Positions 40,495-45,507 of a DNA stretch of 49,409 bases are shown here, in pieces. The stretch lies in assembly GCA_030018135.1 (NCBI GenBank), contig JASEGJ010000007.1, positions 1 through 49,409 on the forward strand. Direction: 5' to 3'. The notes beneath the pieces were generated by a model. It was not told the origin of the DNA. It did not search any database and saw nothing but the letters and a program-made list of their open reading frames with translations. The DNA is from Candidatus Hodarchaeaceae archaeon. GTDB lineage: Archaea; Hadarchaeota; Hadarchaeia; Hadarchaeales; Hadarchaeaceae. The translations under genes and the position numbers were made by a program. The number at the start of each line of letters is the position of its first letter. The stretch's first letter is position 1.

Positions 40495-41538
40495 CTATAC
40501 CTCAGGCGTTTGGAGCAACGGGGCTTCGTCAGAAAACAAGCGAGGGGCCGCTACCTTTTTTGCTTCAACGAGCATTACTGCACCATACCATCGAACGCCA
40601 ATTGCTTTAAAATTATGTTTTTTCAGCATTTCTGCAACCTCGTCGCTGTTGAAGAACCGGACCCGGTGTCCCACCCTTTCGCTAACGTAGAAAAACGCCC
40701 TCATCAGGGGGTTTGGCCTCGGCGGATAGCAAACGATGCTCACCAATAGCTTGGAATCATCCTTTAAGACCCTCGACATCTCAGCCAACGCCTTTTCTGG
40801 TTGCGGAAACAAGTTGAGCGAAGCTTGGCAGGTCAAGCCGTCGAAAGTTTTGTCCTTGAATGGCAACCCCTCGGCATCGCCATTTAAGAAGGTGATGTTC
40901 TTCAAACCCCTTCGCTCGGCCTTCCTCTTCCCCAGCTTAAGCATTTCCAGGGCGATGTCGATCCCAAAAATTTGACCGCGTGGGCCGACCGTCCTGCTCA
41001 GCTCCCTCGCAACCAGCCCCGTCCCAGTGGCGACATCGAGAAATATCTCGCCCCCGCCGGAGCTGGCCATCTTGGCCGTGATCCTAGCGAGCCCTTGATA
41101 CGAAAAGCCGTAGACAATAGATGGGACGATCAACCTTCCCCACTCGTACATGAAGGCCGTCCGGGCGAAATCCTCCTCTATAAATTTTTTCGATATATAG
41201 CTCCTTTCTTCGGGGCTCAACTCCTCGTATTTCAATTCCTTGATGGCCCGGCCGCAGTTGGGGCACAGCACGATTTCGCCCCTGAGGCCGACGAAGGATG
41301 ACCAGGGCTCCCGAACGGCCTCAACCTGCCTCTTGCACCCATCGCAAAATTGGATATTTTTAGGGGGTTTTTCCTCCAGCGTGGGGATCCCGTCTTCGAT
41401 GATGTAATCGTTCCCGCAGCGCTTACATGCGATTTCTCCGCGCAATATCTCCTGCCCCTCTCGCTCGCGAATGCTCAAGCTAAAATCCGAGCTTTTGCAT
41501 GTTGGGCAAAGCAGGTACCGAACGATCTCTCTTTTCAT
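40495..41538 (-). CDS. Class I SAM methyltransferase (UbiE/MenG-like) with N-terminal Trm112-like and zinc-ribbon domains
   Basis: LLCPTCK..IACKRCG..YIIEDGIP, CDGC..CPNC, LDVATGTG, GDAEGLPF..FD and EMSRVLK. Confidence 0.82.
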   Translation of the reverse strand: MKREIVRYLLCPTCKSSDFSLSIREREGQEILRGEIACKRCGNDYIIEDGIPTLEEKPPKNIQFCDGCKRQVEAVREPWSSFVGLRGEIVLCPNCGRAIKELKYEELSPEERSYISKKFIEEDFARTAFMYEWGRLIVPSIVYGFSYQGLARITAKMASSGGGEIFLDVATGTGLVARELSRTVGPRGQIFGIDIALEMLKLGKRKAERRGLKNITFLNGDAEGLPFKDKTFDGLTCQASLNLFPQPEKALAEMSRVLKDDSKLLVSIVCYPPRPNPLMRAFFYVSERVGHRVRFFNSDEVAEMLKKHNFKAIGVRWYGAVMLVEAKKVAAPRLFSDEAPLLQTPEV

Positions 41539-41819
41539 CCTTTCCCACTTCAAAAAGGTCGCCCCACGGATATATTTGATGATGGTTTGTGGCAAAATCG
41601 AGTTCGCTCAAAGGAGCAGGCATAGAACGCCATGCCATCAAAAGCCCTATTGGCATCCTCAGGGCAACTTTCATGTGCAGGTTAAATACCTGTTGATCGC
41701 CAACGAACGCTACTTGACATCTTTCTCCTGTTTTTCTGTGTCGACAAAAATGGTGCCCCACCGATAAATCCGGCGGAAACTACTTATGGGCTCTTGGAGA
41801 GGCTAGAGAGGGTAATTCA

Positions 41820-42812
41820 ATGGCTGATGAGTACGAGAGGGCGGCGGACGAGGTGAGGAAGCTGTTTCAAGAGAGGGGCGGTAAAATTTTGGAGGATTTG
41901 ACGGCTAGCATCTTGGGGGAAAAAATCGAATGCGACGAAACCAAGGAGGCGTTATCCCACTTCGCGTCCTACTGGCGCGATCTCGTCAGGCCCTCGCTGG
42001 TCTCGCTAGCTTGCGAGGCGGTGGGCGGGGATCCCTCGGTCGTCGCCCCGATAGGAAAGTCCCTGAGCCTCCTCAGCGGAGCCACGGACGTACACGACGA
42101 CATAATAGACAGGACGATGACGAAGGAGAAGAGAAACACCGTCCTCGGAGGGTTCGGGGGCGATATTGCCCTGCTGGCCGGGGATGCCCTGATCTTCAAG
42201 GGATTTGCGGAGTTCTTCGAGGGCCTCATGAAATTGGAGATCCCGCCCGAGAAAAAGTCTGCCGTAGTTCGCGCGGTCAAGGAGCTATATTTCGAGATGT
42301 GCGATGGCGAAGCCCTGGAGCTGAGGTTCAGGGCTCGGACCGACGTTGAGCCGGAAGAATACCTTCGAGTGGTGAGGAAGAAAGCCGCAGATATCGAAGC
42401 CTTGACGCGCGTTGGGGCGATGCTGGGCGGGGGGAGTGAGGAACAAACAAAGACTCTTGGGGAGTACGGTAGGCTTTTGGGCATGATTGTACTCTTGAGA
42501 AACGACCTCGAGGACTTACTGAATTTCGACGCCGTGGACTCGAGGATAACAAACGAGAGCCTTCCGCTACCCATACTTTATGCTCTGAAAAACGATGAAA
42601 AAAAGGCAGGTATCCTTGCCATTTTGAAAAATGGGGAAGTAAAAGGGGCGGAAGCTGAAAGACTATTAAAATTAGTTTCGGAAGCCGGAGGACTGGACAA
42701 GCTTTGGGAAATGTTTAGGGGGCTCAAGGCTCAAGCTAACAAAAAGGTTGGAAATAAAAAAATATTTAAAACTATTCTAGAAGCAACCGTTCCCGAGAGC
42801 CCTGAGATCTAG
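41820..42812 (+). CDS. Polyprenyl-synthetase-family protein with ComQ-like degenerate motifs
   Basis: FARM HDDIID (42093-42110), ALLAGDAL, and second motif NDLED (42501-42515). Canonical GGKRxR and RRG are absent. Confidence 0.8.
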   Translation: MADEYERAADEVRKLFQERGGKILEDLTASILGEKIECDETKEALSHFASYWRDLVRPSLVSLACEAVGGDPSVVAPIGKSLSLLSGATDVHDDIIDRTMTKEKRNTVLGGFGGDIALLAGDALIFKGFAEFFEGLMKLEIPPEKKSAVVRAVKELYFEMCDGEALELRFRARTDVEPEEYLRVVRKKAADIEALTRVGAMLGGGSEEQTKTLGEYGRLLGMIVLLRNDLEDLLNFDAVDSRITNESLPLPILYALKNDEKKAGILAILKNGEVKGAEAERLLKLVSEAGGLDKLWEMFRGLKAQANKKVGNKKIFKTILEATVPESPEI

Positions 42813-42875: not shown

Positions 42876-42885
42876 TTCTCCTTTT

Positions 42886-42937
42886 GTATGTATGTTGCAC
42901 ACATATACATTAAAAAAAAACCATAAATAAACCTTTC
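42886..42937 (-). promoter_or_regulatory. Promoter of the peptide ORF with an imperfect inverted repeat
   Basis: Minus-strand TTTATTTAT at 42923-42931 preceded by GAAAGG; ATGTATGT-TGCAC-ACATATACAT imperfect palindrome near the predicted start site. Confidence 0.45.
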
Positions 42938-42978: not shown

Positions 42979-44184
42979 ATGGTGCTGTTTAAATGGCTCT
43001 TTGCCCATCGGAAGGGTTTCTTGCCAATGTTTTTTTTGATACTCAATTCGGTAACGTGGTTTTACCTAATGGTATTCATGATAGAGTTCATGATGCCGGA
43101 TGTGAATCCTTTTGCGTCCTCGCTTCGCTGGCTGTTCTATATGACCACGGCGGTATCCATGTTGATCGGGCCCGTCGTCGTCGGAAGGGTCAGTAAAGCA
43201 CGGTTCCTCTCCTTTTGGATCCTCTTAGGCGTTATTTTTTCGTTATTTCCTATGATTTTGCTTACATCTAGCGAATACGAAGTCGCGGCGCTGCTGATCC
43301 TCTGGGGTTTTGCATTCGGGATCGGCTTCCCCTCCTGCCTCGCCCTAATACCCACTCTCACGAGTGTTGAGGAAAGGGGGCGAGCGGGAGGTGCGGTATT
43401 TTTTGCAACTTATGCCATCTCACCATTATTGATAATTGCTATCAAGCAACTTGATGTTTTTTCAGGTTCTTTCGTGCTTGCAGCATGGAGAAGTCTCTGC
43501 ATTGGAGCGTTTTTGTTTAGTTTTAATGTGGATGTCGCATCACTTAGACCCGTTTCTTATTGTTCTATCCTCCGCCGTAGTATGTTCCTCCTTTATTTTC
43601 TCCCTTGGTTAGCTTTCTGTTTGATAAATTATTTTGAAAGACAGGTTTTGGAACAGTTTTTTGGTAAATCCATGATAGCTTTGATGGTTACCGTTGAGCT
43701 CGTAGTTGGGAGTCTTTTTTGTCTTATAGGCGGATGGCTTATGGATTTGAAAGGAAGAAAGTGGGTAATCATCATGGGACTTGTGGCATTGGGGTTAGGG
43801 TATGCCTTGCTCGGCCTTTTTCCGCTTATTTCTGCCGTCCAAGCATTCTATATGATTATGGATGGTATCGCTTTCGGCATCTTTACGGTGGCGTTTATAT
43901 TTGTCGTATGGGGAGACATTTCAAACGGTGAACGTGGAGAGAAATTTTACGGAATAGGAGGTCTCCCTGTTCTATTAGCTCCGACGTTGTCCCTGTTCGC
44001 CGCCGCTTGGCTTAGAACGCTAGACGCGAGCAACGCCTTCTCGCTCGCCAGCTTCTTCCTCTTCCTGGCGGTCATCCCGATCTTCTTCGCCCCCGAGCTG
44101 CTTCCGGAGTGCGTGCTAAAGGAGAGGGAGCTCAGGAGGTACGTCGAGGAGGTCAAGAAGGTCGCTGGTCGGGGCGGGGCTTGA
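42979..44184 (+). CDS. MFS-like polytopic membrane protein
   Basis: About 12 hydrophobic segments; GGWLMDLKGRK motif A-like, EERGRAGG and ERGEKFYG; charged C-terminal tail. Confidence 0.8.
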   Translation: MVLFKWLFAHRKGFLPMFFLILNSVTWFYLMVFMIEFMMPDVNPFASSLRWLFYMTTAVSMLIGPVVVGRVSKARFLSFWILLGVIFSLFPMILLTSSEYEVAALLILWGFAFGIGFPSCLALIPTLTSVEERGRAGGAVFFATYAISPLLIIAIKQLDVFSGSFVLAAWRSLCIGAFLFSFNVDVASLRPVSYCSILRRSMFLLYFLPWLAFCLINYFERQVLEQFFGKSMIALMVTVELVVGSLFCLIGGWLMDLKGRKWVIIMGLVALGLGYALLGLFPLISAVQAFYMIMDGIAFGIFTVAFIFVVWGDISNGERGEKFYGIGGLPVLLAPTLSLFAAAWLRTLDASNAFSLASFFLFLAVIPIFFAPELLPECVLKERELRRYVEEVKKVAGRGGA

Positions 44185-44971
44185 GCGCGTCCTTGGCCTT
44201 CTCCACTTGCTTGACGACCTCAACCAAGCTCTTCGAAAACGGGTGGTCCGGCTTCTCCAGCGCAATGATCGTCGACCTCTCCAGCCCGAGGACGTCGCAA
44301 TAGCAGGGCAGAAGGTCGATCACCGGCAGTTTGAAGGCCTTTTTGAATTGATTCGCCAGCTTCTTCCTCATCTCCTCGTTTATCGTCAACTGCGCGGGTA
44401 TCTTGTTCATCAAGACCATGGCCCGCTTCTCGAGCAGGCCGTAGAGCTCGCCCACCATGCCCTGGGCGCCCGCGACGTCGGACGAGTCCCAAGTCGAGAC
44501 CACCAGCACCACGTCCGCCGCGGCGATCGCGTTTATGCTCGCGTAGCTAAGGCCCGGGCCGGTGTCGAGGATCACGTAGTCCATTGCCAACTTCTTGAGC
44601 AGGATGTCCCTCAGCGAGAGCAGGCGGTGCAGCGCCCGCATCTCCCACTTGCCGTTCTTCGTCACGATCTCCCTTATCGCTTGCATCGACGGATTTGCCA
44701 GGGCCACGAGCAGCCTCCCCTCGGTGCCCTTTTCCTTCGAGAAATCCTTCAATATGTCGATCGGCTCGCACCTGCCCTCCAAAAAGTCGTTCATCCAGTA
44801 CTTTCCGTCCGCCGCGAAGGTGGCGTCGAGGCTGGGCGCGCGCAGGTCCAGATCTAGCAGGCAGACGTTCTTGCCTTGGCTCGCGAATATCGCCGCCAAG
44901 TTGGTGGAGATCAGGCTCTTTCCCGTACCTCCCTTGTAGCTGTGCACCGCTATGACCATGCCCGGGTTCAA
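44153..44971 (-). CDS. MinD/ParA-family ATPase
   Basis: Deviant Walker A KGGTGKS, DLDLRAPSL, LDTGPG and MNK. Confidence 0.9.
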   Translation of the reverse strand: MNPGMVIAVHSYKGGTGKSLISTNLAAIFASQGKNVCLLDLDLRAPSLDATFAADGKYWMNDFLEGRCEPIDILKDFSKEKGTEGRLLVALANPSMQAIREIVTKNGKWEMRALHRLLSLRDILLKKLAMDYVILDTGPGLSYASINAIAAADVVLVVSTWDSSDVAGAQGMVGELYGLLEKRAMVLMNKIPAQLTINEEMRKKLANQFKKAFKLPVIDLLPCYCDVLGLERSTIIALEKPDHPFSKSLVEVVKQVEKAKDALKPRPDQRPS

Positions 44972-45399
44972 GCTAATCCTCCCCCTTTGGGCTCTGGTCG
45001 TTGTTCGACCCCCATCGAGTCGCCCTCCGCCACGAAATACACCCGCTTGCCCTCTCTTTGTCTCTTCAGGTAACCCATCCTCGCCAGCTGGTTCAGGTAC
45101 GCGCTCTCGATCGCCCTGGCCCTGCCGGTCTCCTTCGCCACGTCGTCGGCCATCGCCTTCCCCAATTTCACTATCGCGATGGCGCTCTTCCTCAGGTGGT
45201 CCGGAAGGGAGAGGAGGGTCATGATGTCGAGGACCTCGCCCACCCTCGTCAGTTCCTCGGCCTTTTTGAGCAGGGGCCTTTTACCGACATCGCTGATCAA
45301 AACATCTATCTTCCTCTCTATTCGGCTCATCCACTCCCTGAGCTCATCCCGTTTGAACGGCTTTGCTTCCTCTGAACCGCGGATTTTCCGCATTTTCAT
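44968..45399 (-). CDS. Winged-helix transcriptional regulator with N-terminal coiled coil
   Basis: ADDVAKETGRARAIESAYLNQLARMGYL..REGKRVYF; overlaps the MinD/ParA gene. Confidence 0.8.
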   Translation of the reverse strand: MKMRKIRGSEEAKPFKRDELREWMSRIERKIDVLISDVGKRPLLKKAEELTRVGEVLDIMTLLSLPDHLRKSAIAIVKLGKAMADDVAKETGRARAIESAYLNQLARMGYLKRQREGKRVYFVAEGDSMGVEQRPEPKGGGLA

Positions 45400-45475
45400 T
45401 CCTGTTTAACACCCCTACACCTGCGTTTAAAGCGGTTGTGAAGCTATCCTCTAGATTTATCCTCCACCTCGAAAA

Positions 45476-45507
45476 TGGCCGCTCGTCCGGGGACTCGAAC
45501 CCGGGTT
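45476..45507 (-). other. tRNA 3'-end-like fragment (T-arm to CCA), possible att remnant
   Basis: The minus strand reads AACCCGGGTTCGAGTCCCCGGACGAGCGGCCA; no matching 5' half or D-arm upstream. Confidence 0.5.

Follow-up and report, generated by a model that had tools for sequence, protein, structure and literature searches.

The closest described relatives of the system presented here are the archaeal geranylgeranyl diphosphate (GGPP) synthases (GGPPS) of the IdsA type, the terpene synthases which insects and rust fungi derived from isoprenyl diphosphate synthases (IDS-like terpene synthases), and the all-alpha prenyltransferases such as ComQ and Ord1. Archaeal membranes are built from isoprenoids and yet, to our knowledge, the specialised isoprenoid products of archaea are poorly charted. 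This study concerns P0001, a prenyl synthase-fold protein encoded at positions 41820-42812 (forward strand) of a 49,409-nucleotide stretch of contig JASEGJ010000007.1 (assembly GCA_030018135.1, Candidatus Hodarchaeaceae archaeon), hereafter the window, together with the major facilitator superfamily (MFS) transporter encoded directly downstream. We give an even chance to P0001 being an enzyme that ionises a prenyl diphosphate and does not elongate it, acting either in a terpene-synthase-like manner or on an unknown acceptor other than isopentenyl diphosphate (IPP), with the product passed to the co-regulated transporter.

We take the functional residues numbered in human farnesyl diphosphate synthase (FPPS) to lie in the motifs GGKxxR, DDxxD..RR, KT, Q..DDxxD and GK, an assignment made by motif and not by an alignment to human FPPS. 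In the available portion of the published account, both DDxxD motifs, via Mg2+, bind the allylic diphosphate together with Arg112, Lys200 and Lys257; Lys57, Arg60 and Arg113 make the direct contacts to IPP; and stabilisation of the carbocation falls to Thr201, Gln240 and the carbonyl of Lys200 (PMC4106277). The accessible sections of work on fungal and insect enzymes describe how a rust-fungus GGPP synthase lost its activity and made nerolidol once one Arg at its IPP site had been changed to Pro (PMC7484799), and how SDAW takes the place of the synthase's KKxR in a terpene synthase of a stink bug that arose from FPPS (PMC7484799; PMC6140472). In the same sections, the NSE/DTE-type triad N/DDxxS/TxxxE/D is not strictly required in IDS-like terpene synthases (PMC7484799). 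Ord1, which has the same fold, is described in the excerpt at hand as transferring farnesyl to indole without IPP condensation (PMC12510300).

A preprint is the one account of archaeal terpene synthases that literature searches brought up; in its available part, these proteins are without Pfam signatures (bioRxiv 10.1101/2024.01.29.577750) and, because they lack such signatures, are unrelated to the P0001 family. In full-text literature searches, no description of the P0001 family or of the enzyme-MFS pair was found. Pairs of a soluble lipid enzyme and an adjacent 12-helix MFS flippase, both handling the same lipophilic molecule, are known from YpfP with LtaA and from Aas with LplT.

Results

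Motifs and fold of the enzyme

The enzyme gene starts with ATG and encodes 330 amino acids (aa), of which residues 55-284 match PF00348 at 88.5 bits in a profile search (cut-off 27), placing P0001 in the trans-prenyl synthase superfamily. The protein falls below the cut-off of all 14 listed NCBIfam models, the best being IdsA_Meth with 126.3 of 468 bits. Among sequences of solved structure, the closest is the GGPPS of Pyrococcus horikoshii (1wy0; E 1.9e-29, HMMER), and the AlphaFold2 (AF2) model of P0001, with a predicted local distance difference test score (pLDDT) of 96.4, compares with it at a VIA Z of 33.8 and a root-mean-square deviation (rmsd) of 2.4 over 310 residues. Ord1 is more distant, scoring 52.6 bits against 106.7 for archaeal GGPP synthases, with a structural Z of 29.2 at rank 30.

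Motifs were mapped on the HMMER alignment to 1wy0, with which a MAFFT alignment to the genome's own canonical paralog agrees. The first aspartate-rich motif (FARM) is intact, DDIID (D93, D94, D97) standing opposite DDIMD of 1wy0. Ahead of it, WRDLVRP lies opposite GGKRVRP, with Lys replaced by Asp54, the next Arg by Leu55 and the last Arg retained as R57; after it, KEK (K102, E103) occupies the place of the post-FARM RRG, GEALE (E164, E167) that of GQARD, and KK-AA that of GKTGA, where K188 is retained and the Thr is gone in a one-residue gap. The second motif reads NDLED (N228, D229, D232) opposite DDVLD; its context, NDLEDLLNF, has Asp where the NSE/DTE triad calls for Ser/Thr, and Phe where the triad ends in an acidic residue. 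In the alignment with the canonical paralog, a five-residue deletion past the second motif takes out the FGK loop, and NESLPLP is found in place of canonical D..GK.T. The residues four and five positions ahead of the FARM are non-aromatic (A88, T89), and R242, E246, P249 and P251 are extra conserved residues. A first-pass annotation of this DNA, made from the letters and their translations, had called the reading frame with its intact FARM and had listed WRDLVRP, the loss of RRG, GEALE, the change at KT and NDLED; all of these are present, and the comparison with archaeal GGPPS which it had proposed fixes each motif. The five-residue deletion and NESLPLP were not on its list.

Judged by these equivalences, the donor (allylic) site looks kept, with the FARM, K102 for Arg112, K188 for Lys200, the acidic second motif and R242 near the lost Lys257 loop. 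The IPP site looks dismantled, with Asp for Lys57, Arg113 lost, and the acidic residues E164/E167 and D90 added. Since the donor site looks kept and the IPP site lost, a chain-elongating role is unlikely. P0001 shares with IDS-like terpene synthases the combination by which the accessible text defines them, namely descent from a synthase, a retained FARM and lost IPP contacts (PMC7484799).

The source genome (G000; 1.1 Mb, 93% complete) has three PF00348 genes, scoring 256 bits for the canonical IdsA (P0121), 144 for a second paralog (P0122) and 89 for P0001. The canonical IdsA, which carries GGKRLRP, RRN, GQALD, KT and DDMLG, is encoded on a different contig from the enzyme gene. The second paralog (348 aa; contig C1:13488-14534, L002:1381-2427) has RGKRLAS, DDLVD..ARRG and DDIID and a long branch in the tree described below, and is probably a second true synthase with a different chain length.

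Conservation across the family

For the family-wide comparison, 325 distinct pooled sequences (250-600 aa) were aligned, and the removal of four truncated or masked rows left 321, which were split by the number of residues from the second motif to column 249. The deletion is present in 313 of them (15-17 residues), to which the counts in this section refer; the other eight, with at least 20 residues, look canonical and include both other paralogs of the source genome. The GGKRxR region is gapped for the canonical rows in this alignment and was mapped from the alignments to 1wy0 and the canonical paralog.

Each FARM aspartate is invariant (313/313). The Lys column of GGKRxR holds Asp in 242 members, Asn in 18, and Glu and Lys in 8 each, and the last Arg is Arg in 213, His in 47 and Phe in 23. 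At RRG, the first Arg (the K102 column) is Lys in 279 and Arg in 24, and the second is Arg in just 32. Both GQxxD positions have turned to Glu, the Gln in 276 members and the Asp in 298, and the Lys of KT (the K188 column) is kept in 281. In the second motif, position 1 varies (D 201, N 55, E 45, other 12), position 2 is Asp in 225 or Glu in 88, and position 5 is Asp in 306. Newly conserved are D90, three residues before the FARM (272), R227 (237), R242 (307), located at the site of the deleted GK loop, E246 (297), P249 (302) and P251 (295); the residue five positions ahead of the FARM is Ala, Gly or Ser in 305. Shared as it is by 313 related sequences, this pattern is that of a conserved family and neither chance nor the mark of a decayed copy.

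The Asn-led second motif, which the first-pass annotation had described as a pseudo-SARM (a degenerate second aspartate-rich motif, SARM), is present in P0001 and is not a family feature. A leading Asn is limited to close, Hadarchaeal-type relatives and, among the 117 close homologs of at least 300 aa in the matches listed, 73 have Asp and 44 Asn, with at least eight switches between the two in a FastTree tree.

Lineage and distribution

A word-index search returned 1071 proteins at E <= 1e-10, and the 120 matches listed are 49-77% identical to P0001. Few of these listed matches are named ('GGPP synthase', 'polyprenyl synthetase family protein', 'hypothetical'; Hadesarchaea/Hadarchaeales). A HMMER scan of 50%-identity representatives gave 129 matches at E <= 1e-30, and the ESM Atlas held just unnamed 'polyprenyl synthetase' and 'MFS transporter' clusters, mainly from Bathyarchaeota. 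A quick maximum-likelihood tree was built from 114 rows, 93 of the family and 21 canonical (14 IdsA of relatives' genomes, 2 paralogs of the source genome and 5 others). All 93 family rows lie on one side of a branch with a support of 100 in the approximate likelihood-ratio test (SH-aLRT), and P0001 and its close homologs form a supported clade inside the wider family. Nesting within canonical IdsA clades, which the first-pass annotation had named as one outcome that would refute its proposal, was not seen in this tree. By searches and tree, the family is a large, well-separated trans-prenyl synthase subfamily, mainly of Bathyarchaeia and patchy in Hadarchaeota.

One genome of each prokaryotic species was scanned, which gave 240 relatives, and all locus counts refer to the best 80 of these 240. 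The 80 loci are mainly from Bathyarchaeia, with a few from Hadarchaeota, Hydrothermarchaeota, Baldrarchaeota and Methanomethylicia, and two in bins labelled bacterial. Within the family and order of the source genome, 6 of 41 genomes have an ortholog-level match (E <= 1e-100), the others matching solely through canonical IdsA (E 1e-25 to 1e-40); in the class around genome G042, the enzyme gene occurs in 30 of 151 sampled genomes (about a fifth), some of which have 2-4 copies. The genomes compared are related, and such counts overstate independence. A higher-scoring PF00348 gene is also present in five of five Bathyarchaeial chromosomes, and a canonical paralog in every genome checked: the enzyme gene is accessory and never the sole synthase in the genomes checked. 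The module was possibly gained by some Hadarchaeota from Bathyarchaeia. No relative was found in viral contigs, and no fused form at E <= 1e-15 among 8000 candidates of 579-2000 aa, a negative of little weight.

Some Bathyarchaeial genomes carry the enzyme gene in tandem copies (L035, L080; G111:C13, G156:C31), and genome G159, with four enzyme and seven MFS matches, represents a local expansion of the pair. The two loci in bacterial bins belong to an Actinomycetota bin (L044, with a radical SAM gene) and an Anaerolineales bin (L045, with MFS and ParA genes); misbinning seems likelier than transfer, because their neighbours resemble those of Bathyarchaeial loci. A distant member of 502 aa, P0127, has an N-terminal extension of about 170 aa, in which residues 50-104 match HEPPP_synt_1 at 19.8 bits (cut-off 30, E 6e-4). 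Beyond this sub-threshold match to heptaprenyl diphosphate synthase subunit 1, nothing was found in the N-terminal extensions of P0127, P0156, P0183 and P0187.

The MFS transporter partner

The MFS transporter (42979-44184, forward strand, 401 aa) matches PF07690 at 47 bits (cut-off 33.4) and shows about 12 hydrophobic segments in its hydropathy profile; no match at E <= 1 was found among the sequences of solved structures. Across 57 orthologs, a motif-A-like loop (G252..D256..G259-R260-K261) is invariant or nearly so, and the charged C-terminal tail (A371-P-E373-L-L-P-E-K) is conserved. By tblastn, an MFS ortholog lies immediately downstream of the enzyme gene in 70 of the 80 loci, and an unbiased clustering of open reading frames (ORFs) of at least 90 aa places the MFS cluster directly downstream of the enzyme gene in 71; of 76 ORFs in this cluster, 75 share the orientation of the enzyme gene. 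Among the nine loci without it, five contigs end at or just after the enzyme gene and four have room.

The two genes also occur together at the level of genomes. In the class around G042 (151 genomes), 30 genomes have the enzyme, 29 the MFS subfamily and 28 both, and in one of the two enzyme-only genomes (G168) the match lies at the very start of a contig. Among the 41 relatives of the source genome, six have the enzyme and five the MFS gene, all five within the six, and the sixth has its enzyme gene at a contig end. The MFS transporter is a near-obligate, conserved partner of the enzyme.

The palindrome and the neighbouring genes

The spacer between the enzyme and MFS genes (166 bp) is AT-rich and contains a 25-bp palindrome, TGTAT-N-T-N-TGTT-NN-ACA-NN-TATACA (42885-42909), followed by an A-rich TATA-like stretch. 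At up to three mismatches, it is the sole match in the window (both strands, same site), where 100 shuffles give an expectation of 0, and it is the sole strong match in the source genome, with one three-mismatch match elsewhere, between unrelated genes. Counted with up to four mismatches in the 19 specified positions over the 80 loci and the window, the palindrome stands in the enzyme-MFS spacer of 54 of the 72 sources with both genes (59 sites). A further 39 sites lie up to 1.2 kb upstream of the enzyme gene, mainly between PadR genes, and 14 elsewhere; shuffled sequence gave 7 matches. PadR regulators are encoded upstream of the enzyme in 49 of the 80 loci, often as a divergent pair.

We infer that the palindrome, lying at a promoter which belongs to the transporter gene itself, serves a dimeric winged-helix regulator as its operator. 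The distribution of sites can be read as control by a single regulator, which would act on the transporter and on the regulator genes, and in many loci on the operon of the enzyme as well. The palindrome is conserved across phyla and probably acts as operator for a regulon of its own.

Two alternatives are found downstream of the MFS gene, namely a convergent operon of a winged helix-turn-helix (wHTH) protein and an ATPase, or a co-directional radical SAM/SPASM gene. The window has the former. The wHTH protein (44968-45399, reverse strand, 143 aa) is TrmB-like, matching TrmB at 25.4 bits, just under the cut-off of 25.6; its gene is the first of the operon, overlaps the ATPase gene by four nucleotides, and its cluster occurs in 25 of the 80 loci and in the window. 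The second gene (44153-44971, reverse strand, 272 aa) encodes a ParA/MinD-type P-loop ATPase (AAA_31 61 bits, ParA 55 bits; NCBIfam matches all below cut-off), convergent with the MFS gene; its cluster is found in 30 of the 80 loci and in the window, on the opposite strand in 31 of 32 ORFs. The pair is found in Hadarchaeota, Bathyarchaeia and Methanomethylicia, and it remains beside the enzyme and MFS genes even in inverted order (L092). In six loci (L036, L047, L050, L062, L092, L103) palindrome-like sites lie immediately upstream of this operon, and several of the 14 sites counted elsewhere are of this kind; in the window there is none upstream of the wHTH gene. The wHTH protein is a candidate binder of the palindrome. 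The layout of the pair, with its upstream palindrome, resembles a partition cassette.

In 28 of the 80 loci, e.g. at L074:8379-9500 (forward strand), the radical SAM/SPASM gene, of the TIGR04084 type (315 bits, cut-off 225), comes after the MFS gene and shares its strand, and is positioned as a tailoring enzyme would be. No TIGR04084 gene above cut-off was found in the source genome.

Divergent from the enzyme gene, a protein of 366 aa (40495-41595, reverse strand) begins with a zinc ribbon of Trm112-like type (52 bits, below cut-off), to which a UbiE/COQ5-type SAM methyltransferase domain is fused. Its position is kept just in the two closest loci, L027 and L028, and with conservation limited to these it was rejected as a member of the module. 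Just upstream of the wHTH gene, a stretch at about 45470-45500 (reverse strand) resembles the T-arm and 3' end of a tRNA (GGTTCGAGTCC...CCA); neither ARAGORN nor Rfam called it, and blastn found no other tRNA-like match in the genome. ARAGORN found just 18 tRNAs in the 1.1-Mb genome, where intron-bearing or split archaeal tRNAs may be missed. The enzyme gene has an ordinary GC content (0.531, 19th percentile among ORFs of at least 300 aa) and the MFS gene a low one (0.477, 3rd percentile). Membrane-protein genes are often low in GC. A mobile-element origin was rejected, given the ordinary GC of the enzyme gene, a low GC in the MFS gene that is common in membrane proteins, and a tRNA-like fragment that was not confirmed. 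Beyond an HTH_45 gene, 15 loci have a conserved ORF of about 60 aa (…LADD[LM]VTA[FL]xNR…), about 4.2 kb downstream of the enzyme start (L046:10141-10332, reverse strand), which has no equivalent in the window.

Search for a precursor peptide

The first-pass annotation had likened P0001 to ComQ and had proposed that an allylic prenyl group is transferred to a non-IPP acceptor, for which it envisaged a peptide. The general part of this proposal agrees with a donor site which looks kept and an IPP site which looks lost in the 313 members; the analogy with ComQ and the peptide acceptor found no support. The available texts describe ComQ and StheQ as having a FARM and an ND-led second motif, as P0001 does (PMC5331326; bioRxiv 10.64898/2026.08.29.745113), and the lost IPP site, the adjoining exporter gene and the SPASM gene past the transporter in 28 of 80 loci, whose weaker NCBIfam matches are peptide maturases, would also suit an enzyme acting on peptides. 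In ComQ, however, changing the Asn to Asp drastically decreased geranylation, according to the portion of the report at hand (PMC5331326), whereas in this family Asn is the minority (55/313), Asn, Asp and Glu interchange at this position, and Asn and Asp flip at least eight times among the 117 listed close homologs.

No precursor-like ORF of at least 20 aa was found in the flanks or in the enzyme-MFS spacer within the window. Clustering of 986 small ORFs (20-89 aa) around the 80 loci gave no conserved peptide beside the enzyme-MFS pair, the top clusters being multi-frame echoes of DNA motifs, including the palindrome. No two-component genes lie near the enzyme gene in the window, the source genome is without a TIGR04084 gene over cut-off, the constant partner is an MFS transporter, and P0001 is closer to GGPP synthases than to Ord1; all of this argues against a ComQ-like role.

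Discussion

Proposed function

What is new here is the age and breadth of the lineage, its motif set, its near-obligate MFS partner and its dedicated operator. In the mechanism that we propose, a Mg2+-dependent enzyme would bind and ionise an allylic prenyl diphosphate at the FARM, IPP would not be bound and chains would not be elongated, and the prenyl cation would be captured by a nucleophile other than IPP. Our tentative choice for this last step is that the cation reacts with water or loses a proton, in a terpene-synthase-like manner, so that a prenyl alcohol or an olefin is formed; capture by a still unknown small-molecule or lipid acceptor is more doubtful. An acceptor that is cationic or bound to a metal would match the acidic character which the former IPP pocket has taken on, although this is speculation. 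Because the residue five positions ahead of the FARM is small, a deep pocket is suggested, with a donor of C15-C20 or longer. The donor is likely to be a C15-C20 diphosphate such as GGPP, which the canonical IdsA of the genome could supply. The MFS transporter encoded directly downstream would export or flip the lipophilic product, and a promoter of its own, with a palindromic operator common to the neighbouring regulator genes, would make the whole an inducible accessory module.

Several points weigh against this proposal. The sub-sites of P0001 are assigned by motif equivalence with solved enzymes and not by pocket geometry. The last Arg of GGKRxR is kept (R57; Arg in 213 of 313 members), and some anion binding may for this reason remain at the old IPP site. 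The NDLEDLLNF stretch does not fit the terpene-synthase NSE/DTE triad. The separation of the family was obtained in a quick tree, with groups picked by motif pattern and with a small canonical sample, mainly Hadarchaeal IdsA. Product transport is argued from the pairing of the genes alone, and four loci (L044, L064, L083, L091) have room for an MFS gene and are without one. Finally, the window has no palindrome-like site ahead of the enzyme gene.

Taken further, and with clear reservations, the enzyme and the transporter may form a self-contained inducible module, specific to uncultured archaea (Bathyarchaeia, some Hadarchaeota and others), by which a terpenoid or prenyl lipid is made and exported. 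It would have been built on an old branch of the synthases that is blind to IPP, and would be joined by SPASM tailoring in a third of loci. If so, it would represent a widespread archaeal pathway of specialised isoprenoid metabolism or surface-lipid export, and the enzyme would add a further catalytic type to the prenyl synthase fold, with an acidic pocket where IPP used to bind. Annotations name the family 'GGPP synthase' or 'polyprenyl synthetase' throughout; should it not be a synthase, lipid-pathway reconstructions which count it as one are wrong. Should the product be an exported terpenoid or prenyl lipid, the pair would offer a testable route to unknown chemistry in lineages not yet routinely grown, and as it consists of two genes and is small, it is open to test by heterologous expression.

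Alternative explanations

Trans-prenyl synthases work as dimers, some of them heteromeric and with one subunit that is degenerate; the Asp-rich motifs are lost in the small subunit of plant geranyl diphosphate synthase (GPPS) and in the small subunits of hexaprenyl and heptaprenyl synthases. Solved examples of heteromeric synthases are among the structure matches of P0001 (3aqb, 3kra, 9kp1). P0001 could by analogy be a non-catalytic binder of prenyl diphosphates, serving as a regulatory or chain-length subunit of IdsA or as a cytoplasmic lipid adaptor or sensor for the MFS transporter: its catalytic-site motifs are altered, a canonical paralog is always there as a partner, and the conserved cytoplasmic tail of the transporter could be a docking site. 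We consider this unlikely, however, in view of a FARM kept in 313 of 313 members and a second motif acidic at positions 2 and 5, which is the pattern of a Mg2+-diphosphate binding site, and of a gene that is linked to the MFS gene and not to idsA, the latter lying on another contig in the source genome.

P0001 could also still elongate chains, with an unusual mode of IPP binding, e.g. through extra metal ions on the new acidic residues, yielding a specific chain length which the transporter helps to remove. Small residues ahead of the FARM are typical of longer-chain synthases, and such a residue (Ala, Gly or Ser, 305/313) is found here together with the full fold, both acidic motifs and an R57 retained in 213 of 313 members; relatives are annotated as GGPP synthase, though these names are automatic. 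Against this, of the three direct IPP contacts described in the accessible account of human FPPS, two have been exchanged, in one case for Asp (PMC4106277), the Thr of KT and the Lys of the GK loop are deleted, the protein scores far under every curated synthase cut-off (at best 126 of 468 bits), and comparable single changes abolish elongation in the fungal and insect enzymes, as far as these are covered in the sections cited (PMC7484799). Retained elongation is improbable on this evidence.

Prenylation of a Trp or another residue of a ribosomal peptide or a protein in the manner of ComQ, with the transporter exporting the peptide, is very improbable in the light of the interchangeable leading residue and of the search for a precursor reported above.

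Comparison with known systems

Compared with the archaeal IdsA/GGPPS (1wy0; 5jfq of G. acetivorans), P0001 has the same fold, length and FARM type, and keeps equivalents of the allylic-site Lys/Arg residues. The family differs in the replaced IPP Lys/Arg residues, in GExxE, in the deletion of the KT Thr and the GK loop, and in the extra D90; it forms a separate clade, and its gene is an accessory one tied to an MFS gene and not a housekeeping one.

The likeness of the enzyme-MFS pair to the bacterial pairs LtaA/YpfP and LplT/Aas, which act on glycolipids or lysophospholipids, is one of analogy only.

PalQ is reportedly grouped with ComQ and StheQ as a peptide-Trp prenyltransferase. The available texts on the all-alpha prenyltransferases ComQ and StheQ, which act on peptide Trp, and Ord1/XiaM, which act on indole, describe a kept FARM, a pseudo-SARM and a non-IPP acceptor (PMC5331326; bioRxiv 10.64898/2026.08.29.745113; PMC12510300). 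Within the part of the ComQ study at hand, Asn or Gly is needed at position 1 of the pseudo-SARM and just the second Asp is conserved (PMC5331326), whereas in the present family positions 2 and 5 of the second motif are conserved, position 1 varies and no peptide gene adjoins; ComQ was compared by description only.

The IDS-like terpene synthases of insects and rust fungi (MhTPS; Melampsora ILTPS) are, in the sections available, synthase-derived duplicates in which the FARM is kept and the IPP contacts and coupling are lost (PMC7484799, PMC6140472). According to the same sections, acidic or aromatic residues replace the basic ones of KKxR/GGKRxR, and the residues four to five positions before the FARM are non-aromatic, as are A88 and T89 here. 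These enzymes are eukaryotic, recent and lineage-specific duplicates, whereas the family described here is archaeal, deep and widespread, is without the NDxxSxxxE triad, and has a deletion and an 'R...E..PLP' motif not described for them. By its sequence features, P0001 belongs to the trans-prenyl synthase superfamily and lacks the tested defining features of the chain-elongating synthases; it resembles the IDS-like terpene synthases and the all-alpha prenyltransferases in logic, and on the same features is a member of neither.

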